From NCBI GenBank assembly GCA_964416505.1, contig CAYQEJ010000006.1:13827-77826 (forward strand): a DNA stretch of 64,000 nucleotides, written 5' to 3'. This DNA comes from an uncultured Gammaproteobacteria bacterium. Lineage in GTDB: Bacteria > Patescibacteriota > Microgenomatia > Levybacterales > UBA12049. Positions 18,999 to 51,487 of this stretch are shown here, piece by piece. Both the position numbers and the translations under genes were made by a program. Numbering within the stretch: the first letter of the stretch is position 1; each line of letters opens with the position of its first letter. The notes beneath the pieces were generated by a model. It ran no database searches. It had not been told where the DNA came from and worked only from the letters and a program-made list of their open reading frames with translations.

Positions 18999-20060
18999 TT
19001 AATGGGGTAAAAATTGAGCTATGTTTTGCGAATTCAAGTTTATTATAGCATTCTTAGCAAGCTTTCCTTCGACAATTAATCTAGCGATTTTTCTACAAAC
19101 TCCCTCTATACTCCTTTCTAAAGTTCTTATTCCTGAGTCATATCCCAAAGGTCTCACGATAAGAGGCCATACATCATCATTCATTTTTATAGTACCAGGG
19201 GTTAAGCCACTATTAACTGCGATTTTAGGAAACAAATAATTTTTACCAATCATAAATTTTTCTTCGTCTGAGTAAGAAGGCATTTGAATAAGCTCAAGAC
19301 GATCCAATACAGCAGTAGCTATATTCGTTGTATTATTTACAGTAGCCACAAAAAGAACTTCTGACAGATCTATTGGATAATCCACATAATGATCTGTGAA
19401 TGCTTGATTTTGTTCAGGATCCAAGAGTTCAACTAAAACTCCCATAATATCAGCTCGAGCCGATTCCGTTACGCGATCTAATTCATCTAAAAGAATTACA
19501 CTGTTTTTTGATTTTGCATGAATCATTTTTTTTATTATTTGTCCTGGCTCAGCATCTGCATAAAGACGCGATTGTCCTCTCAAATCTCTAACATCTCCCA
19601 TTCCTCCAAGAGGAATTCTTTCAAAATTTCTCCCAAGACTTTCTGCGATCGAATGCGCAAGAGTTGTTTTTCCGGTTCCAACCAGTCCTACCAAGCAAAG
19701 TATTGGAGCTCTATTAGACTTCTGGCCATTTTTTAAATTTAAGATAAGAGAGGCTAAATATTCCAAAATTCTATCTTTTACTTCTACAAGTCCGTAATGA
19801 TTTTTATCAAGCATTTTTTTAGCATAAGCTAAATCAAGATTATCTTTAGTCTCAATTGCATATGGAATTTGAGAAATAACACTTAGATAATTTGCAACGC
19901 TTTCTAAATTGCTATAATTTCCAGCCTGTCTTAAAGAAATTTTCAAAATATCAATCATCCCTTTTGCTTTTTCTAATAGCTCCGGAGGTAAATTCGCAGA
20001 TGCAATTTTCTTTTCTAAATTTTGGATTTGAATTTCAAATCCCTGAGCAGAACTATCCAT
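18999..20060 (-). CDS. Lon-derived AAA+ ATPase module (no LAN N-domain, no protease domain)
   Basis: Matches the Lon helical pre-ATPase region (HYGLVEVKDRILEYLA), Walker A (LCLVGLVGTGKTTLAHSIAESLGRNFERIPLGGMGDVRDLRGQSR) and Walker B (VILLDELDRV). It ends right after the AAA+ alpha subdomain (LERSIEGVCRKIARL). No Ser-Lys protease domain follows. Confidence 0.75.
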   Translation of the reverse strand: MDSSAQGFEIQIQNLEKKIASANLPPELLEKAKGMIDILKISLRQAGNYSNLESVANYLSVISQIPYAIETKDNLDLAYAKKMLDKNHYGLVEVKDRILEYLASLILNLKNGQKSNRAPILCLVGLVGTGKTTLAHSIAESLGRNFERIPLGGMGDVRDLRGQSRLYADAEPGQIIKKMIHAKSKNSVILLDELDRVTESARADIMGVLVELLDPEQNQAFTDHYVDYPIDLSEVLFVATVNNTTNIATAVLDRLELIQMPSYSDEEKFMIGKNYLFPKIAVNSGLTPGTIKMNDDVWPLIVRPLGYDSGIRTLERSIEGVCRKIARLIVEGKLAKNAIINLNSQNIAQFLPH

Positions 20061-26623: not shown

Positions 26624-29011
26624 TTATTTATTATTTTTCCTAACAGAAGCGCCCTTAACACTTGGCCCAAAAAGATCAGTCAGGAGAGCATTCGACTGAT
26701 TAATCAGATTCTCATATCTTCTCATCTGATCATAATCGCTTTCACTTAACCATTCCTTTTTAGTAATTTTATTATTTATATATAATGCAATTTCATTTTC
26801 TTCCTTAAGAAGATCTACTGCTTTTTTGATCTTAATTTGATCTTTACTCGAATCCCCTATCCAAGTTTTTATAACGACTAATACTTCCGATGAATTACTT
26901 GCCTCTTTTGACCAATATTGAACTTCCTTGTCTGTATAAGTTGGAACACCGTCAACCAAAGAAAAATTTTTATTTATATTTTCTTTTGGCCAACATGAAG
27001 AGCGACATCCGCCTACGATATTTGTAATATTTGTCTTTAAAAGGAATCCCCAATTTCTTGAGTCCATACTATATTCCCTATTGTCTCCTAGAATTACGTA
27101 ACTATTCGCTGGTATTTCGATTACGCTTCCTTCTTTAATAAATGCATCACCATAAGTTTTTGTATTACCAACATATCCCTCAACAAGTCTTTGATCATTG
27201 ATATAAACATTTCCACCTAATATCTTTAACTTTTCACCCGGTAATCCGATTATTCTTCCTATTCTATGTTCAGATAAATTTCTTGGAAATTTATATATAA
27301 CAACATCGCCCCTATTGATTAGATCTCTATTCTCATCAAAACCAGTAGTCGAGTATTCTTCAGTATTCATGTAGCTAGGATTCATAGCGTCTCCATTAAT
27401 TACAAAATTTTTATGGCCTGGGAGCCAACCATTAAGAAGAAGATTTAGAACCACAAATCCACTAATGATCAAAATTATTACTGAAACAATTAAGTTCCAT
27501 AAGATTGGATGACTTCTAATCTTTTCTTCATTTGTTTTAAGATATCTTAAGCTAACCGATGAACCAATCCCCCTGTAAAACCACCCTTCAACTTCGACAT
27601 CTCGACCAATCAATTTCTTTACTTTCCGTAGAGCAAAAAATAAATTGCCAATAAATGAAAGCAGTGAATTGTAATTTAAAAAAGTTAAACCAGATTTATC
27701 CTGAAGCATAACATCTTCGCTAAAAACATATCCCGGAATACCTTTTCCAATTATTTTTCCATTAAGCCTAATCACTCTTCCTCTTATTGGAGAAGCATAT
27801 ATATTTCTCATCTCATCAATAATTGTTGTATCAGATGCTTTTCCAAATGGATGTGAATAAATTGTTTTTATTAATAACCCCATTGAAAAACCAATTAATG
27901 CAGCCCAAAGATTAATAAAATAAAAGGCAAAAACTGCAAGCATTATTGGCATAATTAAAACTAAGAGTCCTATAAAAAAGTTAACATACAGCTTTACTTT
28001 ATTTATTTTCAATCTTGTTATCGCGGCGTCTATATCAAATGAAAAAGGTTTTCCGAGTTTTTTCGATAGATCACTTAAGTGATCTATTCTCCTACCTGTT
28101 AAAGGGTGTGTTGATGATAGTTCTAATAATTTCGCCCACGGGCTGACACGATCATAAGCAAGTGCTTCTGCAATCAAATTTGGATTACTATTGGTTTCGT
28201 ATGTAATAAGCCCAACATTTTTAGCATTTTTTACATCCGTTATTCCTAAATGTCTTGTGCTCTGTAAAAGTCTTTTAGATTTATCATCATCTTTTGCCGC
28301 CACAATTCCATATGCAATCTTTATTAAAGCGTTGGATAAATCTTGAGGAGACGTAAGTTTTGCTGAAAATTCATCCGCTAATCTTTCCCTAATCCTACTC
28401 AAATAATAAAGTAAATAAACACTGACAATATATAGAGCATAAGAAGCTAAAGCGATCAACTTTAGATTTCCAGATTTCTTCCCTTTTGCTCTTATTAAAA
28501 CTGCGTAGATTTCATATAAAATCTGAACAAGCGTACTAGCTATCATCATTACGACAAAATCCCTATGAACTATATGCCCAAGCTCATGAGCAATTACTGC
28601 TTCCTGTTCATTTTCACTTAAATATTCGAATATACCCTCAGTAATTATTAATCTAGAGTTGTATCTTGCAGTTCCGTATGTAAAGGCGGTCGGATTCTTA
28701 TCAGGAATTATTCCAATTTTAGGAAATTTGAAATTATGCTCTGCGCAAACTTTTTTAATTAATTCTGCTAATTTTACATGTTTTTCTGTAAATTCTTGCT
28801 CAGTCTCGAAACTTATTTTATAAAAAATTTTATTAAAAAAATCAGTTAAAGCGGGAGAGATAATCCAGGAAATAAAATTTATTATTATCGTTAATCCAAT
28901 GGCAAAATAAACATTAAGTTGATCTAAATAAATTAATGATGCCAAAACTATAGCGAATACAAATGAAGTAATTAGTCCGAGAGTAAATAAAGATGCTCCA
29001 AAAAGCCTCAC
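26624..29011 (-). CDS. fusion protein: M48 (HtpX-like) zinc metalloprotease + signal peptidase I (S26)-like domain with non-canonical catalytic residues
   Basis: HEXXH (AVIAHELGHIVHRD) and a downstream ADEFSA glutamate, within multiple TM helices. The C-terminal half has SPase I boxes: NGDAMNPSY (box B, Ala where the Ser nucleophile is expected), RGDVVIYKFP (box C), GRIIGLPGEK (box D, Gly where the general-base Lys is expected) and VILGDNREYSMDSRNWGFL (box E). Confidence 0.7.
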   Translation of the reverse strand: MRLFGASLFTLGLITSFVFAIVLASLIYLDQLNVYFAIGLTIIINFISWIISPALTDFFNKIFYKISFETEQEFTEKHVKLAELIKKVCAEHNFKFPKIGIIPDKNPTAFTYGTARYNSRLIITEGIFEYLSENEQEAVIAHELGHIVHRDFVVMMIASTLVQILYEIYAVLIRAKGKKSGNLKLIALASYALYIVSVYLLYYLSRIRERLADEFSAKLTSPQDLSNALIKIAYGIVAAKDDDKSKRLLQSTRHLGITDVKNAKNVGLITYETNSNPNLIAEALAYDRVSPWAKLLELSSTHPLTGRRIDHLSDLSKKLGKPFSFDIDAAITRLKINKVKLYVNFFIGLLVLIMPIMLAVFAFYFINLWAALIGFSMGLLIKTIYSHPFGKASDTTIIDEMRNIYASPIRGRVIRLNGKIIGKGIPGYVFSEDVMLQDKSGLTFLNYNSLLSFIGNLFFALRKVKKLIGRDVEVEGWFYRGIGSSVSLRYLKTNEEKIRSHPILWNLIVSVIILIISGFVVLNLLLNGWLPGHKNFVINGDAMNPSYMNTEEYSTTGFDENRDLINRGDVVIYKFPRNLSEHRIGRIIGLPGEKLKILGGNVYINDQRLVEGYVGNTKTYGDAFIKEGSVIEIPANSYVILGDNREYSMDSRNWGFLLKTNITNIVGGCRSSCWPKENINKNFSLVDGVPTYTDKEVQYWSKEASNSSEVLVVIKTWIGDSSKDQIKIKKAVDLLKEENEIALYINNKITKKEWLSESDYDQMRRYENLINQSNALLTDLFGPSVKGASVRKNNK

Positions 29012-29051: not shown

Positions 29052-29555
29052 TTAGAATTGATCCTGAGGAATATTGATGATTTTCGAATAATGTTTACCA
29101 CTTCTCATTTTTGTGTTAACTGTCAACTTCACATCTTTAGCTCTATGAAGCACACATCTTTTTCCAGAACAGCTACCAAATGGTATTTCATATCTTACAA
29201 AAGGCTTACCATTGATATTCCCTGTATAAATTTCCTTTCTCGGAATAAATGACCCTTCAACCCCGCCCCTTACACCATTATCTCTATTTGTATAATTTAA
29301 ATTATAATAAACATACTCTACCCCATTAAAATCTTCAAAATCTATAAATAAAGCTTTTTTGTCACTTCTCACGTAAGGTGTTGCGAAAACACCGTCGTTA
29401 TTTGTACTTGTCCATAAAGTTGTTGTTCTTTTAGTGGATGCAAAAGAGTTGTTATTTAATGTAGACAAAAAGAAAAAAGAAAGGAATAAGACTACGGGTA
29501 GAATAATCTTCAGTTTCATTAGTTTTATAATATAAACATAAAGACAATTGAACAA
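29052..29555 (-). CDS. secreted hypothetical protein
   Basis: Likely true start MKLKIILPVVLFL (about 29519) giving a signal peptide. The mature part is Asn/Tyr/Gly-rich with 3 Cys. Confidence 0.45.
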   Translation of the reverse strand: MFNCLYVYIIKLMKLKIILPVVLFLSFFFLSTLNNNSFASTKRTTTLWTSTNNDGVFATPYVRSDKKALFIDFEDFNGVEYVYYNLNYTNRDNGVRGGVEGSFIPRKEIYTGNINGKPFVRYEIPFGSCSGKRCVLHRAKDVKLTVNTKMRSGKHYSKIINIPQDQF

Positions 29556-29590: not shown

Positions 29591-31984
29591 TTAATTTTTT
29601 GTGAAAATTAATGTGGAATTTTGGTCAACTGAAATATTAATACTATCTCCTCTTACAATCTCTCCTGAAAGCATTTTTTTAGCTATTTCGTCTTCTACTT
29701 TATCCTGAATAAAACGAGCAAGTGGCCTTGCACCAAACTCCTCATCAAAACCACCTTTAGAAATAACTTCTATCGCAGATGGTGAAAAATTTAAAGCAAT
29801 ATCTTGTTCTTTTAACTTGGAAATTAATTTTTGAAGCATCAAATTGGTAATTTCTGAAATCTGCGAAGAACTTAAAGGATTAAAAATAACTATGTCATCA
29901 AATCTATTTAGAAGTTCAGGTTTAAATAATGCATTTTTCTGAAGAAAATCCAAAAGCACCTGATTGGAGAGCGAAGAATTTGACCTTAAGCTTTCCCTAA
30001 TTAACTCTGAACCTGCGTTACTAGTTGCAATAATGATAGCATTAGTAAAAGAAATCGTCCTCCCGCTTGAATCCGTCATTCTTCCATCATCTAAAACTTG
30101 AAGAAACAAATCTATAATTTTTTCATTTGCTTTTTCAAATTCATCGAGAAGAATTAGACAAAATTGATGATTCAAAACTTGATCAAGAAAACTGCCTGAA
30201 CTGTTTTCCAAAAATCTTCCAACAGAATCTGGACTTCCATATTCACTCATATCTACTCTAACTATTTTTTCTTCCCCTCCAAAATAAATTTTGGAGATAG
30301 ACTTTGCTGTTTCTGTTTTTCCCACACCAGTTGGACCTAAGAATAAAAATGAGATAGGTTTTTCTCGTGTCAGACCAACTCTAATTCTCCTGATTGCCTG
30401 CGATATTGATTTAATTGCCTGATCTTGACCAATCACAAACCTATGCATTTCCTTTTCCAGATTTAACAATAAGCTTTTTTCTTCCTGTGTAGGAGATCCA
30501 ACCGGAATATGACTTCTGTCACGTACTTTAGATAAAACATCTTCTTCTAAAACAATTTTGTTTTTTCTATTCGAAAGCCTTATTGAATTTGCAGTTTCTT
30601 CCAAAAGCTCTACAGCAGTTCCAGGAAGAGAAGCAGCCAGGTCAAATTTATCGGCATAAAAAATAGCAGTACGAATCGATTTGTAACTTAATTTTATTTT
30701 ATATTTTTCTTCTATATCTTCAGATTTTTGTAAAATCATCTTTAAAGCCTCATTACTGTCGGGTTCTTCTAATTTTATAATTTCAAATACTTCACGAAGA
30801 GAATTTTTCTCAAAATAGTTCTTGTATTCTCCGTTTGTCATTGTCGCAATTATTGGCATTTTTCCATCTTTAAGATAAGGAAGAATTGCTCCAGATAAAT
30901 TTACCCCATAAGAACTTGATCCTAAAAGATTTTGGAACTCTGGTATAAATAAAATTATATTTCCAGAATGTTTTACCTCTTCAATTATCGCCTGTAATCT
31001 TACCTCAAGCTCTTCTCTGTTCTGCGTCCCCGCAACTAGTGAACCTACAGATATTTCCAAAAATCTTCTATGATTAAGTTTTTTATTTAAGTTCGATTCG
31101 TAGCTATCAAAAATAAAATTTTCAACAAGTGTTGTTTTACCAACTCCTATATTTCCCACTAATAAAACATTGTTATCAGAATTTTTTTGAAGAGCCTCAA
31201 GCATTACTCCATACTGATCTTCACGTCCCTCGATATAAGATCTTTTTCTAATATTTGAAAATGTAATATCTTTTGTATAGTTTTTAGTTTCAGGTGTCCA
31301 TCCCCAAACTAGTGTTTCACCGATGCCAATTCCTATAAATCTTACGCGTCTTTTTTTAATTTCTTCTTCTTTAAAACTAATTCTTGCCCAATGATTAATA
31401 TTTAAAATATCATCCTCTTTTAATTTATTTGCAAATAATAATTTGGTTTGGTTCTCTGTTATTAAAAAATAAGAAGTCAATAAATCTGAAGAAGTAATAT
31501 ATTTTCCACTCTGACTTGACGCAATTTGAAAAGCTTTATTAAATAATTCTTCTTTTGTAAATTCCACAATCTCAAAAGAATTTTTATCAATTGCACACTT
31601 TTCAAGATAAAACCTGCCCCCCTTACTATTTAGTAGATAGCTAATTATGGATTTCGTATTTTTCTTAAACAAAACAGAAATTAATGCCTCTTTAGTAAAG
31701 CAGTCCAGTAAATTTTCTGGATTCTCTCTGATAGATTTAGAAGGAAATATTTCTTCCAATTCAAACTTAATAAAGATATGAATTATCAATGCAAGAGATA
31801 ATACAAAAAGTGGAACTGCTATATTCAATCCGTAAGCTATGGAATAAATTAACCACCCTAAAAAAATAAAAAATAAAATTATTTTTATAAATAGGAAAAC
31901 CAAAGAATTGTAAATTAAACTAACGCCAACTTTTCCCTCTCTCATAAAATAAATAAAATTGCCAATGTAAGCACAGGCCACCAA
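29591..31984 (-). CDS. membrane-anchored ClpA/ClpB-family double AAA+ protein (NBD1 Walker B degenerate)
   Basis: N-terminal TM helices instead of a Clp N-domain. NBD1 has Walker A LLVGNIGVGKTTLVENF but its Walker B reads ILFIPEF (Pro in place of Asp). NBD2 is canonical (FLFLGPTGVGKTETAKSI, LILLDEFEKANEKIIDLFLQVLDDGRMTD, sensor/Arg finger region). The ORF-track start is a TTG. Confidence 0.75.
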   Translation of the reverse strand: MVACAYIGNFIYFMREGKVGVSLIYNSLVFLFIKIILFFIFLGWLIYSIAYGLNIAVPLFVLSLALIIHIFIKFELEEIFPSKSIRENPENLLDCFTKEALISVLFKKNTKSIISYLLNSKGGRFYLEKCAIDKNSFEIVEFTKEELFNKAFQIASSQSGKYITSSDLLTSYFLITENQTKLLFANKLKEDDILNINHWARISFKEEEIKKRRVRFIGIGIGETLVWGWTPETKNYTKDITFSNIRKRSYIEGREDQYGVMLEALQKNSDNNVLLVGNIGVGKTTLVENFIFDSYESNLNKKLNHRRFLEISVGSLVAGTQNREELEVRLQAIIEEVKHSGNIILFIPEFQNLLGSSSYGVNLSGAILPYLKDGKMPIIATMTNGEYKNYFEKNSLREVFEIIKLEEPDSNEALKMILQKSEDIEEKYKIKLSYKSIRTAIFYADKFDLAASLPGTAVELLEETANSIRLSNRKNKIVLEEDVLSKVRDRSHIPVGSPTQEEKSLLLNLEKEMHRFVIGQDQAIKSISQAIRRIRVGLTREKPISFLFLGPTGVGKTETAKSISKIYFGGEEKIVRVDMSEYGSPDSVGRFLENSSGSFLDQVLNHQFCLILLDEFEKANEKIIDLFLQVLDDGRMTDSSGRTISFTNAIIIATSNAGSELIRESLRSNSSLSNQVLLDFLQKNALFKPELLNRFDDIVIFNPLSSSQISEITNLMLQKLISKLKEQDIALNFSPSAIEVISKGGFDEEFGARPLARFIQDKVEDEIAKKMLSGEIVRGDSINISVDQNSTLIFTKN

Positions 31985-32277
31985 ATAAAAAATGCCAAAA
32001 AAGTAATTTCAAAAAAAATTAGCAGTAACAAAACAAATGAATCCACGATTATAAAAACACTTTTTACAAAAATTCCCATACCAATAGAAAATGCAACTAA
32101 TCCTTTTCTATACTCATTTTTAAGAGGCTTGAAGAAAGTTCTTATCATAAGCGGGAGAGAAAGAATCTGAAGAGCAGCGTGGTTTAAGCTCATGAAATAG
32201 TTTATAAGCCTCAAAGGCGCCTCGAGATACCAAAATTTAAGAAATAAAAATGGAATGGATAAATAAAATCCGGGCAT
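31942..32277 (-). CDS. polytopic membrane ORF, possibly the frameshifted N-terminal part of the downstream ClpA/B-like gene
   Basis: 111 aa, all hydrophobic helices. Overlaps the TTG start region of the 797-aa ORF by 43 nt in another frame, next to A/T homopolymer runs. Confidence 0.35.
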   Translation of the reverse strand: MPGFYLSIPFLFLKFWYLEAPLRLINYFMSLNHAALQILSLPLMIRTFFKPLKNEYRKGLVAFSIGMGIFVKSVFIIVDSFVLLLLIFFEITFLAFFIWWPVLTLAILFIL

Positions 32278-33414: not shown

Positions 33415-33846
33415 CTAGAATCCAATTTTCTCAACAATTAAATATACAAAAAAATTATTATACAAATAATGCATAAATATTGCGATGATAACACTCACAA
33501 TTAACCAATAGACTCCCCTCTTACCCAATAAATAAATGAAGACAATATTTGAAGTATGAATTAAAGTTGTAAAAATCAATCTAACAAAAAACAATTTCAT
33601 GTTTCCTAATGCTAATATATTGGTTAAGTATAGAAATGATTCAGAAAGAGAAAATAAGATACCTGATAAAATAACTAGATTAATCAGCTTCCTTTTTATT
33701 TTTTCTTCTTCTTTAAGTATAAAAATAACAATTAACGCTGAAAAAAATTCTTCAATTACTGATGGAAAAGGAATAATCCATTCCAAAACCATTATTGGTA
33801 ATGGGCCAAAAAAGGAAAGAAGAGGAAGTATGTATAGCGCATTCAT
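33415..33846 (-). CDS. small polytopic membrane protein, possibly CPBP/PrsW-like
   Basis: Four to five TM helices. Glu pair (VIEEFFSAL) and a HxxxN-like HYLYNN resemble CPBP motifs only weakly. Confidence 0.35.
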   Translation of the reverse strand: MNALYILPLLSFFGPLPIMVLEWIIPFPSVIEEFFSALIVIFILKEEEKIKRKLINLVILSGILFSLSESFLYLTNILALGNMKLFFVRLIFTTLIHTSNIVFIYLLGKRGVYWLIVSVIIAIFMHYLYNNFFVYLIVEKIGF

Positions 33847-36800
33847 TAGTTAGAAATTATATACTGATCATTAACCCACCCTTTTATCAGTTTATCGTCA
33901 GTTTCTATTTCAACCTGAACCCATCCTGGTGATTCGTTTATTTTTTTTGCTTTCAAATTAGCGGTAATACTTTTTAAGATTTTCGTTGAGGTAGAAGGTC
34001 CGGATCTTAAATTTACTGCACTTGGCGTTGCAATAATTTCAATATTTTGGATTTCGGATTTTACTCCTAAAACAGACTTCGAATCTTCAATGTTTACTTC
34101 ATCATCTTCTCCTCTAGTTTTTTTATTTTCTTTTGTTTCAATAGTTTTTTCTCGGGGTAAATCATTTCGTAATTCATGAGTAATTTTCTTAGAAATAAAA
34201 AATACAAAAATTATTGAAATTAAAACTAAGATTATTAAAAACATGATTATTAATATTTTTTTTGTAACTCTCTTATCTAATTCATCAATCAAATCAGCAA
34301 GAGGCTGAAAATAATTTTTATAAAATTTCTTAGAGTCATTGTCTTTTCTACCATGTCCCGCTAAGGCTCTCATATAAAACGCCATAAAAACAAAACCAGC
34401 AAGTAGAATAATTACTATTCCCCACACAGCAAATGTTTGAACACCACCCACAAATCCGAATAATGAATTTGCTGAACTAGCTGAAGTAGCTAGCGTCTTA
34501 AGATCATCTATCTCAGCTTTAGCCTTATCTACCTGAGTCTTAGCATCACGGTATGCTTTTATTCTCTGCTCTGGAGTATTAGCTTCTTTCTGAATTCTAC
34601 TAGCTGAATCCAAAGAAGCTATCACATCTGCATAAAGAGTCGCTCCTTGACCAAAATAAGTTGTCCCCTTTAGTGGCCCATAAATTTCTTTTGCTTGAAT
34701 TCTTAGTGAATCTATTTCCTCGTCAGAAATTTTCCAAATATCTTCTACTTCAACTGAATAAATTTTTGTTTGATTAGGAGACAAAACTACCTGACCGCTT
34801 GCATAATAAGCGTCTTCTGAAGCATCATACTCAATTGTCAAATCATCATCTTTTTTTATCACATCTTTATCTGTAGCTTCTTTAGGAAGATAAAACTTAA
34901 CCGGAACAGTTTGCCTTATTGAAGTTGGGTTTGTAATTAAAGTTTTAAATATAATACTTCCTTCTTCAAGCCAAGTCTGAATAATAGGGGACTTCGTACC
35001 ATTTTCTAAAAGCGTCTTATTTGCTTGTGTTAATGCCTGAAGAGCTAAAACGCTATTTTTTAAACTCTGCAGATCTGAAGCATTTGCTTTCGAAAGCGTA
35101 AGAATATCTGAAACTCCCGAAATTGAATTTGAAGATGAGACATCAGAGGAAATTGAATTGACAGCATCTATAATATCAGATGCTGTATAGCTATCCCATT
35201 TTGCCAAAACATCTGAAAGACCTGCTCCTGAGGTATCGAGATCTTGGATTGTTTCTTTATTTAATTTAAGTCTTCCATACAAAGTCGCATCTGAAGAAGT
35301 ATCAGAACTAGTACCGATCTTGGTTTGCATAGATGATATTTCTGAAATTATCGATTGCAAATCCTGATATGCTGTTGTCGATTTCCCATTATAGTTTAAT
35401 TCGCTTCTCAAACTATTTAGATTTGCCTCTGTTGTAATAGCTGAATTATAAATATCATCTGCAGTTCTTGATCCCCATTTTCCTTTTATACAATTAACCT
35501 GTCCAAAGATCGTAGAATCCAAACATGTATCGGCTGAGTCACCTAGCGAAGCGACATCCAGATTGTTGATTGCAGTCATTAAATCAGAGATTGTATAAGA
35601 ACCCCACTTAGCAAGAATCGAATCAGCTTTGGAGTCTATAGAATCCACAGTAGTATTTACAGAATCCACAGTTGTACCTATCGCATCAACGCTTGATTGA
35701 ACTCCAGCTACATCAGTAGAGACCTGAGACAAACTTTTGTTATCCGGACCCTTAATTGAGGTTGTACTCGATGAAATATCCTCTCGGGTGGCTTGTATTT
35801 TACCAAACACCGTAGAAGCCGCAGAATTATCGCCAGAAGAACCTATATTTGTATTTAGAGTTTGTGCATATGTCTTTATTGCTTGAATATCCTGATATGC
35901 AGTTGAAGATTTTCCACCATAATCCAATTCACTTCGCAGAGAAGCAGAATACGTTGCAGCATTATTTGCAGCAGCATAAAGAGTATCCGCAGTTTGACTA
36001 CCCCACTTATCTCTAATACACTTTATCCCTCCGAAAACAGTACTTGTTACACAACTATCTGCGCTCGTTCCTAGACTAGACTCCAAATCATCTACATATC
36101 CTATAACATCAGACATTGAATAAGATCCCCATTTACTTAAGATGTCAGTAGTATCCGAAAAAATAGAATCGATATTCGTATCAAGAGTATCAACTTTTGC
36201 TTCAATTGAATTTAAAGAATTTTGCGCGGTAACTAGTCCAGAATTAATCTGGGTAAGATCTTTATTCCCGGAACCTTTTATAGAGGTTGTAGCTGAAGAT
36301 GTAGCATTATTTACATCTGTTTTCGTTGCCAAACTTTCCCCGTTATCTAGACTTGCTCCTGTTAGAGTTCTTGTTGCTGAGCTCCAAATATCCGTAACCA
36401 ATGTCCCAAATGTAGTTAACGATCTCGCTGAATAACTCCAGATATCAGAAATTAATGTGCCGAATGAACTTAAAGTTCTAGATGGATAATTCCAAATATC
36501 AGCTACAGCAGGAATACTATTTTGAAGCTTTTCTCCAAAAGAACCATTATTTGTATGCGCGCTCGCTGTAGCATCCCACACCTGATCAGGAATATTTTCT
36601 TCAATAGTAAAAGTTTTATCGAGCCTTAACGTTTGACCATTTGTAGTGCAAGTAATTTGACTTCTATAAGTTCCCAAAGTCATACCTGAAGTATTAAAAG
36701 CATAGTAATACCATCCATCATTTTGGGCAGCCGAGGTCATAGATTGAGAATTTAAGAATAAGGAACCATCGGGGTATCTTGCGGTTAATGTACAAGTAGC

Positions 36801-36977
36801 ATCTATTATGGGGTCATAACTATCATCATAAAGATATTCCCCTATTGAACAACTAGAGCCTTCCGTGCATTTTTGATAGCCTGCAGTTGCGGCATAAACA
36901 ACATTTTTTGAAATAAATACAGAAAAACAGATAAAAACTATTAAAAATACAGTTTTTATCTTAATATGAGACAGCAT
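33846..36977 (-). CDS. large (1043 aa) tandem-repeat surface protein with C-terminal TM pair and SH3b domain
   Basis: Signal peptide, N-terminal beta-rich domain, about 2.3 copies of a ~170-aa Ser/Thr-rich repeat each with a Cys pair (ADSCVTSTVFGGIKCIRDKWGS / ADTCLDSTIFGQVNCIKGKWGS). Two TM helices, then a bacterial SH3-like domain (PSAVNLRSGPSTSTKILKSI...GWVQVEIE...KGWVNDQYI). Confidence 0.75.
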   Translation of the reverse strand: MLSHIKIKTVFLIVFICFSVFISKNVVYAATAGYQKCTEGSSCSIGEYLYDDSYDPIIDATCTLTARYPDGSLFLNSQSMTSAAQNDGWYYYAFNTSGMTLGTYRSQITCTTNGQTLRLDKTFTIEENIPDQVWDATASAHTNNGSFGEKLQNSIPAVADIWNYPSRTLSSFGTLISDIWSYSARSLTTFGTLVTDIWSSATRTLTGASLDNGESLATKTDVNNATSSATTSIKGSGNKDLTQINSGLVTAQNSLNSIEAKVDTLDTNIDSIFSDTTDILSKWGSYSMSDVIGYVDDLESSLGTSADSCVTSTVFGGIKCIRDKWGSQTADTLYAAANNAATYSASLRSELDYGGKSSTAYQDIQAIKTYAQTLNTNIGSSGDNSAASTVFGKIQATREDISSSTTSIKGPDNKSLSQVSTDVAGVQSSVDAIGTTVDSVNTTVDSIDSKADSILAKWGSYTISDLMTAINNLDVASLGDSADTCLDSTIFGQVNCIKGKWGSRTADDIYNSAITTEANLNSLRSELNYNGKSTTAYQDLQSIISEISSMQTKIGTSSDTSSDATLYGRLKLNKETIQDLDTSGAGLSDVLAKWDSYTASDIIDAVNSISSDVSSSNSISGVSDILTLSKANASDLQSLKNSVLALQALTQANKTLLENGTKSPIIQTWLEEGSIIFKTLITNPTSIRQTVPVKFYLPKEATDKDVIKKDDDLTIEYDASEDAYYASGQVVLSPNQTKIYSVEVEDIWKISDEEIDSLRIQAKEIYGPLKGTTYFGQGATLYADVIASLDSASRIQKEANTPEQRIKAYRDAKTQVDKAKAEIDDLKTLATSASSANSLFGFVGGVQTFAVWGIVIILLAGFVFMAFYMRALAGHGRKDNDSKKFYKNYFQPLADLIDELDKRVTKKILIIMFLIILVLISIIFVFFISKKITHELRNDLPREKTIETKENKKTRGEDDEVNIEDSKSVLGVKSEIQNIEIIATPSAVNLRSGPSTSTKILKSITANLKAKKINESPGWVQVEIETDDKLIKGWVNDQYIISN
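35180..36320 (-). repeat. diverged in-frame tandem coding repeats (~510 nt unit) within the 1043-aa surface protein gene
   Basis: The protein-level repeats map to roughly these coordinates. Nucleotide identity looks only moderate by eye. Repeat boundaries are approximate. Confidence 0.45.
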
Positions 36978-45216: not shown

Positions 45217-46089
45217 TTAAAACCAACCGGATTTCTTCTTGGAGTTATCAAATTCACGAAGAAGCTCTTTCTGACGGGATGTAAGATTTTTTGGAATAAC
45301 TACTTTTACCTGAACATAATGATCGCCTTTATGCGACCCTCTTACATGCATTATTCCTTTTTCCCTAAGCCTAATTACGGTATTTGGTTGAGTTCCTGAA
45401 GGAATTTTAAGTTTTACTTTTCCCTCTACTGTCTCCACTTCAATTTCAGTCCCGAGAGCTGCATCTGGAAATGAAATCTCTTCTTCAGTTACTACATCAT
45501 AACCCTCTCTTTTAAATCTAGGGTGAGATTTTACTTCTATCAGAACGTCATATGTTCCAAATCTAACTCTTTGACCATTGTCTACTCCGGCTGGAATTTT
45601 TACTGTCTGAGATTTTCCTTCAATAGTAACTTTTTTCGTAACTCCTTTTACCGCATCCATGAAATCAATTGTTAAAGAATAGACTGGACGACGCTCACGT
45701 CCAAATGGATTGCCGCCCCCAAAGAATTGTTCAAATATCTCAAATGGATCAGAAAAACCACCAAAATCAAATCCCTGACCATTTCCGCCAGTAGAATATG
45801 TGTAAGTAAACGGTCCGCTTTGACCTCCGAATCCTCCACCAAAAGGACCCTGACCGCCACCTTGCTTAAAAGCATCATGCCCAAATTGATCATATGAAGC
45901 TCTTTTTTGAGAATCCGACAACACCTCATAAGCTTCAGTTACTTCTTTAAATTTGGCTTCTGAAGCTTTATCCCCTTTATTTCTATCTGGGTGATGCTCA
46001 AGCGCAAGCTTTCTATATGCCTTCTTAATTTCAGCATCAGTTGCGCCTTTACTTACACCTAAAACTTGGTAGTAATCTCTGTCAGCCAT
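45217..46089 (-). CDS. dnaJ: DnaJ-family co-chaperone, class II/CbpA-like (J domain + G/F region + C-terminal domains, no CxxCxGxG zinc finger)
   Basis: [33 protein letters not shown] (HPD motif), a Gly/Phe-rich linker, and no Cys repeats. Likely start MADRDYYQ at 46089. The ORF-track extension to 46167 is probably spurious. Confidence 0.85.
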
Positions 46090-46229
46090 AGGCCTAATTC
46101 TATCATTTTTCGAGCTCAAATTAAAGCTAAAAAGCCATTTCAAAAAGCTTTTTATTGCATTTTTCAAGCATATTTCTTATCGATTTCCCATACTAGCGTC
46201 TTAACATAATTAAGGAAGGAGGTGGAATA

Positions 46230-46508
46230 ATGATTAGTTTGATTTTATGGGCAGTTTTTGGAGCTATAGTTGGATTTATTGCTGACTATATCGATAGGAA
46301 TGTAGCCTTAAATTGGACAGAAAGAGTAATTGTAGGAATTGTTGGAGCAATCGTGGGAGGAAGCGTTACCCAACTCCTTACAACAGGCACAATTGGAATT
46401 TCAGCTGCTGCAGGATTTGATCCTGTTTCTATGATTGTAGCTGTATTGGGCGCATTGGGTGCTCTTTTTGTTTACAAGAGAGTCCGAAGTACTCGAAGCG
46501 TTGTATAA
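46230..46508 (+). CDS. GlsB/YeaQ/YmgE-family small membrane stress protein
   Basis: WAVFGAIVGFIADYI...IVGIVGAIVGGSV Gly-zipper TM helices. Strong GGAGG RBS upstream. Confidence 0.7.
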   Translation: MISLILWAVFGAIVGFIADYIDRNVALNWTERVIVGIVGAIVGGSVTQLLTTGTIGISAAAGFDPVSMIVAVLGALGALFVYKRVRSTRSVV

Positions 46509-46515
46509 AACGCAG

Positions 46516-46540
46516 GAGGGGTGCGCATTCTTAAAACGCA
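46516..46540. terminator. candidate bidirectional stem-loop between convergent genes
   Basis: GGTGCGC-ATTCTTAAAA-GCGCAC-like hairpin (gtgcgcattcttaaaacgcac) between the + gene end (46508) and the glmS end (46542). Short stem, weak T-tract. Confidence 0.2.
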
Positions 46541-46541
46541 C

Positions 46542-48320
46542 TTACTTTACAGTTACACTTTTTGCTAAATTTCTTGGCTTATCTGGATCCTTAATTCCTT
46601 TTTCAAGAGCCATAAAATATCCTAATAATTGAAAATATACAACCTGCGGAATTAGAGTAGCCTCTAAAAGATCATCAGTTTTTAGAAAAACATCAAAGAC
46701 ATCGCTCTCTTTAGGTCCTACCCCTATTATGAATCCACCTCTTGCCTTTACCTCCTGAGCATTTGAAATTATCTCATCATAGGTTTCATCATTTGGAGCA
46801 ATTATAAAACATGGTGTTCCCTTTTCAATTAAAGCAATCACTCCATGCTTTAATTCTCCACCAGCAAATCCCTCAGCATGAGTATAAGATGTCTCTTTAA
46901 GTTTTAGTGTTCCTTCCAAAGCTGCTGCATAAGAAAGACCTCTTCCAAGAATATATATATGTTCTTTATTTTTTAAGTTTTTTGCTAATTTTTTTATTTC
47001 TGAAAGATTTTCTTCCTCAATTAATTTGCTGACATTTTTTGCGGCATCAAATAATATTCTTTTACCTTCTTTCTGCCGACCAGAAAGAGTATAAGCTGTT
47101 AAAAGCAAGACTGCGAACATTGAAGTAAAACTTTTTGTTCCAATTACCGCTTTTTCCTGGCCTGCTCCCAGCATAACTCTAAAATCAGCCTGGCGATAAA
47201 TAGTTGATCCCATTACGTTTACGATTGCTGCAACTTTAGCGCCTTTTTTCTTGGCCTTACTTACGGGCTCTACAACATCAATTGTTTCACCGGACTGAGA
47301 GATTGGGATTATAAGACTATTTGGAGTTAGGTAATCCTCAAGATAGCTAAACTCTGATCCAATGGAAAAATTTATATGCCTTTTAGCAATTTTAGAAAAT
47401 GAATAAACTCCGGATAATGCTGCATATGAAGCACTTCCGCATCCTAACATAAACGCTCCCTTGGATTTTTTTATCATCTCAGAAAAATTTTTAATTTGCT
47501 CATCATAAGTGCTGGCAATATTTTCCAAAACTCTTGGTTGTTCTGCGATTTCCTTCTGAAGAAAATGCTTATAATTTCCTTTTATCGTATTTTCAAATTC
47601 CCAATCAAGCTTAATAAACTCGGGTTTTATCTCTTCTCCACTAGGCAATTTAAATAATTTAAGCGAATTTCCCAATAAAACCATTTGGTTATCTTCAAGG
47701 AAAACCACTTCTTTCGTATACTCAACAATTCCAGAAGCATCAGATGCAATAAACATTCCGTCACTATTTTTACCAACTATTAAAGGCGACCCCGTCTTAG
47801 CTGCAACAATTTCGTTTGTTTTTGTATTGATAGCTACAACCGCATTAAGACCTTTTATAGAATTGAAAGCATCCCTAAAAGCAACAGGAAAGTCTTGCAA
47901 GGCCTGGCCTTGCGAGGCTAAATTTTCCTCAACAAGATGTGGAAATATTTCCGTATCAGTCTCTGATAAAAATTTATGGCCTTTTTCCAAAAGATCTTTT
48001 TTTATTTCCTGATAATTCTCAATTATTCCATTGTGAACAACTGCAATACTTCTGCTGCAGTCTAGATGAGGATGTGAATTTGCTTCTGTCACGCCTCCAT
48101 GAGTAGCCCACCTGGTATGTCCAATTCCAATTTCACTTTCTGGAAGATTAACCTTAGCATCTCCAATTTTCCCTACATGTTTCTCGATTTTTATTTGATC
48201 ATTTTTCTTTACAGCTATTCCCCAAGAATCATAACCTCTATACTCTAAAAGCTTTAAACCCTTTAGAACCATATTTGGGGTATCTGTTTTTTTACCGACA
48301 TATCCAAATATTCCACACAT
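46542..48320 (-). CDS. glmS: glutamine--fructose-6-phosphate aminotransferase
   Basis: MCGIFGY N-terminal nucleophile glutaminase domain followed by two SIS domains. 592 aa. Confidence 0.92.
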   Translation of the reverse strand: MCGIFGYVGKKTDTPNMVLKGLKLLEYRGYDSWGIAVKKNDQIKIEKHVGKIGDAKVNLPESEIGIGHTRWATHGGVTEANSHPHLDCSRSIAVVHNGIIENYQEIKKDLLEKGHKFLSETDTEIFPHLVEENLASQGQALQDFPVAFRDAFNSIKGLNAVVAINTKTNEIVAAKTGSPLIVGKNSDGMFIASDASGIVEYTKEVVFLEDNQMVLLGNSLKLFKLPSGEEIKPEFIKLDWEFENTIKGNYKHFLQKEIAEQPRVLENIASTYDEQIKNFSEMIKKSKGAFMLGCGSASYAALSGVYSFSKIAKRHINFSIGSEFSYLEDYLTPNSLIIPISQSGETIDVVEPVSKAKKKGAKVAAIVNVMGSTIYRQADFRVMLGAGQEKAVIGTKSFTSMFAVLLLTAYTLSGRQKEGKRILFDAAKNVSKLIEEENLSEIKKLAKNLKNKEHIYILGRGLSYAAALEGTLKLKETSYTHAEGFAGGELKHGVIALIEKGTPCFIIAPNDETYDEIISNAQEVKARGGFIIGVGPKESDVFDVFLKTDDLLEATLIPQVVYFQLLGYFMALEKGIKDPDKPRNLAKSVTVK

Positions 48321-48358
48321 ATTGAATTGAATTATACCATTTTAGAAGATATTAGGAG

Positions 48359-50275
48359 TTAATTTACTACTTCGCCTTCAACTGGTTCTTCTGAAGTTTT
48401 TGATCCTTCTGTCTTTGCATCTTCCGAGCTATCTTTTGCCTGCTCATCTGTCTGACCTTCTGCCTGATTATTTCCCCCTGGTTGATTCTGATACATCTGT
48501 TGACCAACTTTTTGAAGTGAATCAGATAATTCTTTTGTTTTTGCTTCAAGATCTTCTTTTGATCCAGTTGGTAAAATTTCTTTAAGGGCTTTTATTTTTT
48601 CCTCAACCTCTGACTTTAATTCAGCTGGAACTTTATCCCCACCGTCAGCTAATGATTTTTCAGCAGTAAAAATGAGTGAATCAGCTTGATTTCGTGCTTC
48701 CACCATCGCCTTTGCTTCTTCATCTTCTTTTGCATGAGCTTCAGCATCTTTTGTCATTTTATCGATTTCCTCATCAGTAAGTCCTGTTGAGCCAGTAATT
48801 TTAATGCTTTGCTCTTTTCCGCTAGCTTTATCTTGTGCTTTTACACTAAGTATTCCTGAAGCATCAATATCAAAACTTACCTCTACCTGAGGAACACCGC
48901 GTGGCGCAGGCGGAATACCATCCAAAATAAATCTTCCAAGCGATTTATTATCTTGTGCCATTGCTCGCTCTCCCTGCAATACATTAATTTCTACCTGAGT
49001 TTGATTATCCGCAGCTGTAGAGAAAACTTGAGATTTGGAGGTAGGAATTGTTGTATTTTTTGAAATAAGAGGAGTTGAAACTCCACCCAAAGTCTCTATT
49101 CCAAGAGTAAGTGGCGTTACGTCCAAAAGTAACACATCTTTAACTTCTCCGCCAAGAACTCCTGCTTGTACTGCTGCTCCAACAGCAACCACTTCATCTG
49201 GATTTACGCTCTTATTTGCTTCTTTTCCAAAGAACTTAGCTACAGTTTCAACAATTTTCGGCATTCTAGTCATTCCTCCCACCAGAACTACCTCGTCGAT
49301 TTCATTTACCTTTACTTTTGCATCTTTAAGAGCCTGCTCAACTGGCTTAAGTGTTTTCTGAACTAACTCATCAACTATTTGCTCAAGTTTTGCTCGAGAC
49401 AAAGTCATTGTTAAGTGCAAAGGACCACTTTCGCCCTGAGTAATAAAAGGCTGATTAATTTGAGCTTCTGTAGACGAAGAAAGCTCAATTTTAGCCTTTT
49501 CTGCAGATTCCCTAAGTCTTTGAAGAGCTTGTGGATCTTTCTTTAGATCTACTCCATTTTCTTTCTTAAACTCTTCAGCTAAATAATCAATTATCGCCTG
49601 ATCAAAATCATCTCCTCCAAGATGAGTATCTCCATTTGTAGATTTAACCTCATATACTCCTTCTCCAAGTTCGAGAATAGAGATATCAAATGTTCCTCCA
49701 CCGAGATCATAAACAGCAATCGTATGAGCATTTTTCTTATCTAATCCATAAGCAAGCGCTGCTGCTGTAGGCTCATTTATTATCCTTAATACCTCAAGGC
49801 CAGCAATTTCTCCAGCTTGTTTTGTAGCTTGGCGCTGCGAATCATCGAAATATGCAGGAACAGTTATGACAGCCTGGGTTACTTTATCTCCCAAGTATGC
49901 CTCTGCATCAGATTTAATTTTTTGAAGAATCATAGCTGAAACTTCTTGAGGAGTAAGTGTTTTACCTTCTACTTCTACGACAGCCATTCCTTCACGGCCT
50001 TCTTTTATTGTGTATGGAAGCCATCTAGAATCAAATTGAACTGATTCATCTTTATATTTCTTACCCATCAATCTTTTTATTGAAAAGATTGTGCTTTTTG
50101 GCTTAAGAACAAGCTGTCTCTTTGCAACATCTCCCACCACATGACTTATAGGGTCCACTACTGATGGGATAGTGTTTCTACCTTCACTTGAGTGGATAAC
50201 TTTTGGTGCTCCACCTTCCATTACGGCTACGCATGAGTTTGTTGTTCCTAAATCAATTCCTATTATTTTTGCCAT
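48359..50275 (-). CDS. dnaK: molecular chaperone DnaK (Hsp70)
   Basis: [32 protein letters not shown], substrate-binding domain and an acidic EEVD-like tail. Confidence 0.95.
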
Positions 50276-50276
50276 A

Positions 50277-50762
50277 TTAGTTTTTTTGTCCTCCTACTAT
50301 TACTTGTGCTGGACGCAGTGTTTCATTATTTATTATAAAACCTGGCCTAACTTCTTCAAGTACTTTTCCATTCTCCCCTTCTTGCACCGAAACACATTCC
50401 ATAGTCTGAGGATCAAAATCCCTGCCCGTGGATTCAATCCTACTAACCCCTTCTTCAGAGAGAACGTCTAAAAATTTCTGTATAGAAAGATTTAATCCGT
50501 CGTCTTGAATATGTTTCTGCGCAAGAAAAAGATTATCTAAAACAGCTAAAAGTTTCAAGATGAGACTTTTATTTGCTGTTTTTATCCAAATTGCTTTCTC
50601 AGCTGATATCCTTCTTTCTAGATTCTGATAATCAGCAAGCGCTCTTTTTAATTGATTTTCAAGGTTCGTAAGCTCGTTATTTTCTGTTATCTGTTCTTCC
50701 TCATCTACAACTTCTTCATTTATATCTTTTTTCAATTCACTTTTTTTCTTCATCTTTACCAA
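50277..50762 (-). CDS. grpE: nucleotide exchange factor GrpE
   Basis: Coiled-coil N-terminus and a GrpE beta-domain. Positioned between hrcA and dnaK. Confidence 0.85.
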
Positions 50763-51487
50763 CCTCTTGCTACTTCTTCAATCAAATTTCCAAAATATCT
50801 CACTGTCGGAACTACATATGTGTAATTTAATCTAGTTGGACCTATTACTCCAATTTCTCCTCCGGTATTTTGTGGAGTCATGTATCTTTTAAATACAAAT
50901 CCGTACGGACCGGAAAGACGTGGCCCCAATTCTTCACCCATTAAAACCTGTATTTCCTCATCTCTTCCAACTGCTTCAAAAATTGGCCTGAAGCATTCAA
51001 ATTCATCAATTGCGCTAAGCAGAGTTTTCGTTATGTCTATATCAAAAAACTCTGGCATCTCAAGCAAATTTGCATATCCGGAGATGAAATATTCCCCAGA
51101 ATCAGTTGCTGCGATCGCAATTGCTCCTGTTTTGCTTGCAAGCGCACGAGTAACTTCTTTGAGAAATTCATGCTCCTTGTCTCTTATATCCCAAACCTTT
51201 TCTTTCATTGAGACTTCTTCTGCAACCGAAAGCTCTTTCTCCTTCATAAGCTGCTTAACGTAAAATTTCATTGCAGCTGGAGTTGGAACACGTCCGGAAG
51301 AAATGTGAGTTTTTTTAAGATAACCGTAGTTAGTTAACCTCACCATTTCATTTCGAATAGTTGCAGGCGAAGCTGAGAGAGAATGTTTTTTCTCAAGAGT
51401 CTCAGAGCCTACAGGTTCTGCTGTTTCAATGTACTCTTCGATCAAAGACTTAAGAATCTCGATCTGACGTTGTGTTAGATCGTGCAT
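50756..51487 (-). CDS. hrcA: heat-inducible transcription repressor HrcA (short form)
   Basis: N-terminal winged-helix region (LTQRQIEILKSLIEEYIETAEPVGSETL...SPATIRNEMVRLTNYGYL). 243 aa. Confidence 0.8.
   Translation of the reverse strand: MHDLTQRQIEILKSLIEEYIETAEPVGSETLEKKHSLSASPATIRNEMVRLTNYGYLKKTHISSGRVPTPAAMKFYVKQLMKEKELSVAEEVSMKEKVWDIRDKEHEFLKEVTRALASKTGAIAIAATDSGEYFISGYANLLEMPEFFDIDITKTLLSAIDEFECFRPIFEAVGRDEEIQVLMGEELGPRLSGPYGFVFKRYMTPQNTGGEIGVIGPTRLNYTYVVPTVRYFGNLIEEVARGW

Follow-up and report, generated by a model that had tools for sequence, protein, structure and literature searches.

A Clp/Hsp100-derived double AAA+ protein of Levybacteria with a predicted membrane anchor and a small membrane protein encoded beside it

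Introduction

What might a Clp-type ATPase ring do if it does not grip polypeptide? The question is raised by two neighbouring open reading frames (ORFs) on the minus strand of contig CAYQEJ010000006.1, within a stretch of 64,000 nucleotides (nt) that is referred to here as the window, and which has a low GC content (about 31–41% G+C). The longer ORF encodes a double AAA+ protein of the Clp/Hsp100 type, and the shorter one, directly upstream, encodes a membrane protein of 111 residues. An earlier analysis made from the letters alone (the sequence-only reading) described the former as a membrane-anchored protein of the ClpA/B/C type with two AAA+ modules, the first of them degenerate, and this description is supported here. 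The same analysis suggested that the two ORFs are a single gene broken by a frameshift, whether a sequencing error, a genuine mutation or a programmed event, and this suggestion did not survive comparison with related loci.

Clp/Hsp100 proteins are the textbook soluble threading motors. The family described here, a core gene pair of one order of the candidate phyla radiation (CPR), has none of the requirements for threading that were tested. It combines one ATPase ring in which all catalytic motifs are intact with a membrane anchor, and its gene is firmly linked to that of a small membrane protein of no named family. It is a bacterial and genetically simple system in which to ask the opening question, which is also open for the torsins of eukaryotes.

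Two adjacent genes rather than one

Both ORFs are found on the minus strand where the sequence-only reading placed them, at 29591..31984 (797 residues, counted from a TTG codon) and at 31942..32277 (111 residues). The overlap of 43 nt between them holds only if TTG 31984 is the start of the Clp-like gene. This codon had been taken as the most upstream TTG, and it is rejected here in favour of ATG 31945, which reduces the overlap to the four nucleotides ATGA (31942..31945): the start codon of the large gene (31945-31943) lies over the TGA stop of the small gene (31944-31942). Read in the frame of the small gene, the junction is ATT TTA TGA, and the frame of the large gene starts one base earlier, as ATG AGA GAG GGA AAA. 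The Clp-like gene is accordingly annotated as 29591..31945, with its stop codon at 29591-29593, and encodes 784 residues.

Three observations favour this start. The NCBI-called protein identical to that of the window is 784 residues long and begins MREGK, and the starts of homologues fall at the position equivalent to ATG 31945. In the closest loci (L001–L006) a stop codon 3–9 nt upstream of the equivalent ATG closes the large-gene frame, so that a longer N-terminus is impossible in those relatives. The ATGA is conserved across eleven junctions in a DNA alignment, and is by its sequence an arrangement typical of translational coupling. A promoter and terminator scan around the gene pair gave no difference from shuffled sequence.

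The comparison with other species rests on a scan of one genome per species, which gave 114 loci. Of these, 80 were analysed (named L001 to L080, with protein clusters given P-numbers), and 75 are informative, in the sense that they include sequence downstream of the small gene. Where sequence downstream of the small gene is available, the gene that directly follows, with the same orientation, is in essentially all cases the Clp-like one. The two proteins are encoded by separate ORFs in 70 of the 75. The junctions of these split loci range from −19 to +130 nt and occur in every relative frame: 17 have the ATGA arrangement (−4 nt), 19 have a gap of +1 nt, and 61, these two groups included, fall between −7 and +11 nt.

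Genuine single-ORF fusions account for four of the remaining informative loci (L050, L067, L076 and L079). A fifth candidate, L013 (2522-5104), was rejected as an artefact, since its ORF runs through a scaffold gap of 100 N; the NCBI record of the small protein from this locus (P0185) is labelled 'partial'. Nine protein clusters of 818–824 residues begin with the small-protein domain (P0078, P0089, P0109 and P0112–P0117). The fused forms lack the first transmembrane (TM) helix, TM1, of the split form, and they follow two architectures, having either one extra TM helix after the small domain, or the last helix of the small domain merged with TM2. Fused and split forms are interleaved, such that the nearest relative of the fused P0109 is the split P0100, at 70% identity. 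The interleaving and the two architectures together imply that fusion or fission has occurred more than once, and in-frame fusions occur in at least three lineages. Recurrent fusion is Rosetta-stone evidence that the products of the two genes act together. In this respect the view that both ORFs belong together was correct.

Is it nevertheless possible that the window holds one frameshifted gene, through a sequencing error in the A/T homopolymers, a recent pseudogenising mutation, or programmed frameshifting? The two ORFs do overlap close to runs of T, the T-rich homopolymers near the junction being confirmed, and natural fusions of the two proteins exist elsewhere. At the level of the family, however, the prevalence of separate ORFs and the many geometries and frames of their junctions rule out a frameshift, and the orthologues share neither a slippery site with a fixed frame relation nor a single continuous ORF. 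The homologues of the small protein are short and stand alone in all of the 120 listed, out of 171, with no fused form among them. The C-terminus of the small protein and the N-terminus of the large one each align end-to-end with their homologues, the small-protein alignment continuing across the region of the T-runs to the last residues, including the invariant E90 and P101. Proteins of the same two lengths, 784 and 111 residues, recur unchanged in independent Logan assemblies. Finally, because the fusions lack the TM1 of the split form, no shift of one nucleotide relates the window pair to them. We therefore consider a broken gene to be very improbable. The gene structure, with two separate and tightly coupled genes, is almost certain, as is the motif anatomy described below.

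Domain structure of the Clp-like protein

The Clp-like protein belongs to a family of 118 members, which are 42–67% identical and about 780–825 residues long, after which there is a sharp drop to ordinary ClpC at 33%. Pfam identifies PF07724 (AAA_2, E 3e-36), PF10431 (ClpB_D2-small, E 3e-23) and PF17871 (AAA_lid_9), with weaker P-loop matches around residues 250–350 in the first AAA+ module, D1. ClpC and ClpB chains are matched at E 1e-100. The AlphaFold2 model of the 784-residue protein, built on an alignment of 74 sequences, has a mean predicted local distance difference test score (pLDDT) of 85, and a Foldseek search of the PDB with it returned protomers of ClpC, ClpB and ClpA as the top matches (E 1e-44 to 1e-51, target-normalised TM-score about 0.8). 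The two Clp-type AAA+ modules and the ClpB D2-small domain that had been recognised by eye are thus confirmed, and the family is clearly a Clp/Hsp100 derivative.

It is not, however, one of the named Clp proteins, because its scores are far below every Clp equivalog cut-off in NCBIfam: 408 against 1232 bits for ClpB (TIGR03346), 378 against 993 for ClpA (TIGR02639), 323 against 885 for ClpV, and about 320 against 1900 for ClpK and ClpG. The names given to members of the family in databases are generic ('ATP-dependent Clp protease ATP-binding subunit ClpA/ClpC' or 'ATPase AAA-2 domain protein'). The label ClpA/ClpC is misleading, since the ClpP-docking loop is absent, as described below. No peptidase domain (M41) was found in the Clp-like protein by Pfam or NCBIfam.

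The N-terminus is hydrophobic, as had been noted, but the hydrophobic stretch is confined to residues 5–66 and is modelled by AlphaFold2 as two TM helices rather than several. A short helix (residues 2–12) is followed by a TM hairpin at residues 15–63 (31757..31903, minus strand; TM1 15–37, TM2 43–63), with pLDDT of 84–90. The hairpin probably does not replace the Clp N-domain, contrary to what had been supposed. It is followed by a domain of eight helices in the model, at residues 79–191 (31373..31711, minus strand), the second half of which (residues ~132–184) aligns with Clp_N repeat 2 in hhalign (probability 85%, E 7e-6). In single-stretch alignments ClpA is matched from residue 92, and TIGR02639 from position 82. 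The Pfam scan of the large protein gave no match to Clp_N. The model and the alignments thus point to a divergent Clp_N-like domain that is retained behind the membrane anchor.

The overall layout is then a short helix, two TM helices, the Clp_N-like domain, D1, D2 and D2-small. The coiled-coil M-domain of ClpC and ClpB is absent: the spacing between the two Walker A motifs, at 270–280 residues, leaves no room for it, the M-domain segment of ClpC and ClpB remains unaligned, and the model contains no long coiled coil.

Motifs in D1 and D2

The most informative part of the protein is the pair of AAA+ modules. Their motifs were read from an alignment of all 118 members with ClpC as a reference, and checked by residue-level alignment to the B. 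subtilis ClpC structures in the PDB. For hydrolysis, AAA+ proteins require the Asp and Glu of Walker B and Arg fingers acting in trans, while docking to ClpP requires an (I/L/V)GF loop.

D1 occupies residues ~240–460 (30566..31228, minus strand). Its Walker A motif, GNIGVGKTT (31130-31156), looks intact in the window protein; across the family GxxGxGK is kept, and the canonical Thr or Ser that should follow is usually replaced (the position holds E in 46, S in 29, D in 16, T in 12 and N in 11). Walker B reads ILFIPEF (30935-30955) where B. subtilis ClpC has ILFIDEL, so the proposal that the Asp is lost is borne out by residue-by-residue alignment. The loss extends to the whole family, an intact hhhhDE being found in none: the position holds P in 108 members, S in 7, T in 2, Q in 1 and D in 0. 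The following Glu is better kept (E in 85, D in 15, Q in 13). The replaced region is itself conserved, as [IV]L[YF]IPEFQ. The Arg-finger motif ERRF has become [RK]-[E/D/Q]-[V/A]-F, with both fingers lost; in the window protein it is REVF. At the pore loop the window protein has TQNR (31016-31027) in place of KYR, and throughout the family the Tyr is replaced by N (71), D (23), S (11), G (6) and also T, E or Q, and never by an aromatic residue. Judged by these motifs, D1 is a pseudo-ATPase, without the residues on which hydrolysis depends.

D2 and the D2-small domain (residues ~500–784; 29594..30448, minus strand) are very different. Walker A, GPTGVGKTE (30311-30337), and Walker B, LILLDEFEKA (30128-30157), are conserved in the family. 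Conservation is complete or above 90% at sensor 1 (TSN), the Arg finger (LNRFD) and sensor 2 (GARP), and R681, the Arg finger itself, never varies. D2 thus retains every catalytic motif, which agrees with its earlier description as canonical.

What D2 has lost are the parts that handle substrate and protease. About 60 of the 118 members have no GYVG pore loop, an eight-residue deletion having removed it; in the window protein, which is one of them, the deletion lies at 30191-30211. The other members carry E, Q, S, K and others in place of the Tyr, within a loop that reads PPG[E/Q]G.ERGELT. An aromatic residue is found anywhere in this loop in one member of 118, and at the Tyr position in none. 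A ClpP-binding loop, for which a search had been recommended, is also missing: where the (I/L/V)-G-(F/L) motif was looked for, at 29981-30004, there is a ten-residue gap relative to ClpC (GRMGFVTETE / KYVGFNVQDE). The degeneracy thus goes well beyond the Walker B Asp first pointed out, to the D1 Arg fingers, in most members the D1 Walker A Thr, both pore tyrosines, the ClpP loop and the M-domain.

The small membrane protein

The 111-residue protein (31942..32277, minus strand) has 171 homologues; the 120 listed are of 68–152 residues, mostly about 108–112, with 51–85% identity. It had been described as all-TM, but strong hydrophobicity is limited to residues 58–111. After an amphipathic N-terminal half comes a basic loop that does not vary, TFFKPLKNEYRKGL, and then a pair of hydrophobic helices at the C-terminal end. 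Of the aligned columns 21 are invariant; among them are the loop T-F-P-K-NEYR-GL and three intramembrane residues, K72, E90 and P101.

Pfam, NCBIfam and PADLOC scans of this protein and of 30 family members gave no family. A full HMMER profile search of 1.84 billion representative proteins, aimed at remote relatives and at other kinds of fusion, found 60 representative clusters only, all of them short, with no informative fusions. A partial duplication was considered as its origin, because MAFFT pairs the TM hairpin of the Clp-like protein with the N-terminal half of the small protein, but this was rejected on the basis of hhalign (probability 1.4%, E 0.04). AlphaFold2 was run on the natural fusion P0109, where the small-protein domain has pLDDT of only 43–78 and its helices are implausibly long, which makes this part of the model of no use for the membrane topology.

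Species distribution and gene organisation

The loci come almost entirely from metagenome-assembled genomes (MAGs) of Levybacteria, Microgenomates or Patescibacteria, and on sequence grounds the gene pair is a core feature of Levybacteria/Microgenomates (Patescibacteria), to which the family is restricted. Many MAG records with a Levybacteria-type locus are titled 'uncultured Gammaproteobacteria bacterium', while L015 is titled Candidatus Sulfotelmatobacter and P0092 Xanthomonadales; these are probably mislabelled bins.

Clustering of the ORFs in the 80 loci shows that the pair is almost always directly upstream of nusA-infB-(a gene of ~330 residues)-S15. In many loci it is also directly downstream of hrcA-grpE-dnaK-dnaJ. 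In others, a gene resembling a type IV secretion system (T4SS) pilin, a membrane protein of ~780 residues, a second and more canonical Clp paralogue and an S8 protease intervene upstream of the pair. In the window the chaperone genes (hrcA, grpE, dnaK, a gene of 592 residues, and dnaJ; 45220..51487, minus strand) are ~13 kb upstream of the pair and on the same strand. A search of the 64 kb for the CIRCE operator (controlling inverted repeat of chaperone expression; TTAGCACTC-N9-GAGTGCTAA, with up to 3 mismatches) found no match, even upstream of hrcA, and is for this reason no guide to membership of the heat-shock regulon.

The neighbours of the pair in the window are housekeeping genes, namely those for NusA, IF-2, polynucleotide phosphorylase (PNPase), RNase J, an AAA protein with a Lon lid, TatC and a protein like dihydroorotate dehydrogenase (DHODH). 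In the window alone, the Clp-like gene and nusA are separated by two further genes, an insertion that relatives do not have. One is a 167-residue ORF (29052..29555, minus strand), with an N-terminus like a signal peptide and no match in Pfam, NCBIfam or PADLOC. The other is a 795-residue ORF (26624..29011, minus strand) that joins an HtpX-like M48 domain (residues 80–314) to an S26 signal peptidase domain (529–664). Its position next to the pair was considered as a functional clue and rejected, since the insertion is unique to this genome.

Possible functions

The best overall explanation, which we hold to be somewhat probable, is that the two proteins form a membrane-tethered AAA+ complex that is non-proteolytic, probably non-threading and specific to the lineage. 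The AAA+ protein would assemble into a ring that its TM hairpins fasten to the cytoplasmic side of the membrane. The small subunit would be a stable partner of this ring, and would probably turn its invariant basic loop towards the ATPase. The part of the D1 ring would be structural, with nucleotide binding at most, and D2 would be the sole motor.

Processive threading needs aromatic residues in the pore loops (PMC5425593). Since these are absent here, and the ClpP-docking loop also, the complex would most likely neither thread processively nor feed a protease; the fact that the whole D2 loop is dispensable in half of the family supports the view that threading is unlikely. ATP turnover by D2 would then serve as a conformational switch or remodeller, acting in a torsin-like fashion either on the small membrane partner or on a client held at the membrane by the N-domain. 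The non-threading mechanism, taken by itself and argued from the motifs, is a tentative suggestion.

Several points weigh against this explanation. The oligomeric state, the binding of nucleotide to D1 and the contact of one protein with the other are all predictions. The fold and topology of the small domain are poorly modelled, as seen from the low pLDDT in P0109, and, if all the hydrophobic helices are full spans, the TM parities called for by the two architectures of the fusions disagree. Among the members, about half, that have kept the D2 loop, it is conserved and may still contact something in the pore. The location beside hrcA-grpE-dnaK-dnaJ fits a classical role in proteostasis, as an unfoldase, equally well, and the synteny could be simple inheritance within one order.

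In the main rival reading the protein, though tethered to the membrane, does thread: it would be a genuine unfoldase, extractase or disaggregase, acting together with the DnaK system and much as FtsH, Msp1 or ClpB do. It would either grip its substrate with non-canonical pore residues or have it handed over by the small subunit. The fully intact D2 motor, the probable retention of a Clp_N-like domain, the position of the pair directly downstream of dnaJ in many loci (and ~13 kb downstream of it, on the same strand, in the window) and the conserved sequence of the D2 loop wherever it is kept would all suit such a machine. Not one of the 118 members has an aromatic residue at either pore-loop position, however, and the deletion of the whole D2 loop from about 60 of them, including the window protein, shows it to be dispensable. 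In addition there is no M-domain through which to couple to DnaK, and D1 appears catalytically dead. We consider a threading role possible but rather unlikely.

The loss of so many canonical motifs might alternatively be the mark of a relic, a Clp paralogue without function whose motifs are decaying. This has very little to recommend it, because the same losses are found across 118 clusters that are only 42–67% identical, with about 70 columns, all the D2 catalytic residues among them, invariant across the family. The substituted D1 motif [IV]L[YF]IPEFQ is itself conserved, the partner gene is even better conserved, and the 80 loci showed neither a dN/dS near 1 nor frequent internal stops. A role in anti-phage defence, as a module of the Dodola kind built on a ClpB-like ATPase (DolB), can be dismissed as highly improbable: although PADLOC matches its DolB model at 130 bits and also gives PDC-M37B matches, these span the generic D2 region only, there is no DolA or other defence partner and the neighbours have no PADLOC matches, and the conserved chromosomal synteny with housekeeping genes (nusA, infB, the dnaK operon, PNPase and RNase J) contains no defence or mobile-element context, nor any variable, island-like context, around the pair.

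Other features of the window and of related loci

The 795-residue ORF with M48 and S26 domains is an unusual fusion of proteases in its own right; it is the second gene downstream of the Clp-like one, and is missing from this position in the 80 related loci. The window also encodes a stand-alone Lon-like ATPase of 353 residues, with an AAA domain and a Lon lid domain and without the Lon protease domain (18999..20060, minus strand). The 1043-residue product of 33846..36977 (minus strand), probably a surface protein, is Ser/Thr-rich and has internal repeats, a C-terminal TM segment and, at its terminus, an SH3_3 domain. The next gene after it (33415..33846, minus strand) encodes a polytopic membrane protein of 143 residues that matches no family. 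Rfam gave no family at the gathering score in the 64 kb, tRNA and rRNA included.

It is worth adding that the second Clp paralogue mentioned above, of about 840–990 residues, lies a few genes upstream of the pair, for example in L019 (2862-5483), L028 (3512-6040), L063, L072 and L077, and is not present in the window. It has a P/Q-rich disordered N-terminal extension followed by Clp_N, and retains intact its GYVG and both Walker B motifs. An M-domain is absent (Walker A spacing 280), and a regular-expression search, the only one made, found no [ILVM]GF match in its sequence. It adjoins the T4SS-pilin-like gene (PF18895, a weak match) and the polytopic membrane protein of ~780 residues.

Comparison with known systems

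A close parallel in domain organisation is with ClpA of the E. coli type, which has the order N-D1-D2 and no M-domain. The domain order, the Walker A spacing of about 270–280 and the fold of the protomer are alike, and one stretch of alignment between the two proteins takes in everything from the later half of the N-domain to the C-terminus. The window protein differs in having a TM hairpin and a dead D1, in lacking the pore tyrosines, and in the deletion of the IGL/IGF loop for ClpP. ClpC and ClpB are the top sequence matches, at about 33% identity, and their D2 and D2-small domains are closely alignable, with all the catalytic motifs. In contrast to them, the window protein is anchored in the membrane and has no coiled-coil M-domain, and so no site for coupling to MecA or DnaK; the KYR and GYVG loops and the VGF loop of ClpC are missing too.

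FtsH, Msp1 and Bcs1 likewise have an N-terminal TM anchor, which places their AAA+ ring on the cytoplasmic side of the membrane. These, however, are single-ring AAA proteins of the classical clade, with aromatic pore loops, and FtsH further carries an M41 peptidase domain, which has no counterpart in Pfam or NCBIfam scans of the window protein. A tandem AAA+ protein in which one ring does not hydrolyse ATP, and is presumably structural, has precedents in NSF, where D2 is an inactive structural ring, and in the degenerate Clp-like proteins SMAX1/D53 of plants. None of these is known to have a membrane anchor or a small membrane subunit as partner. Precomputed Pfam lists for some members of the present family include PF23569, which we take to be the SMAX1-type nucleotide-binding domain.

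A search of the literature gave no description of this Clp-like family, the sole relevant item being a review of torsins (PMC5425593). Torsins are related to Clp/Hsp100, are associated with membranes, have no aromatic pore loops, and act with membrane cofactors (PMC5425593). The likeness to torsin with LAP1/LULL1, in the eukaryotic endoplasmic reticulum and the envelope of the nucleus, therefore extends to kinship, pore loops, membrane association and a dedicated membrane partner. There are also clear differences. Torsin has one AAA+ module and receives its Arg finger from the cofactor, whereas the present family has an invariant Arg finger of its own in D2 and retains what appears to be a dead D1 ring, and its partner is a membrane protein of ~110 residues and not a degenerate AAA+ fold. 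The resemblance is a functional analogy and not a demonstrated orthology.

By this analogy, the pair might represent a prokaryotic version of the torsin principle, in which a Clp/Hsp100-derived ATPase has given up threading and serves, powered by ATP, as a switch for a small membrane subunit dedicated to it, in some function of the CPR envelope or membrane. We regard this as a possible but doubtful idea. If it is true, the role of the pair would be neither unfolding nor degradation, but one in the envelope or membrane that is specific to these ultra-small, episymbiotic bacteria. For Patescibacteria, whose cell biology is poorly understood, the family represents a further conserved machine of the membrane.

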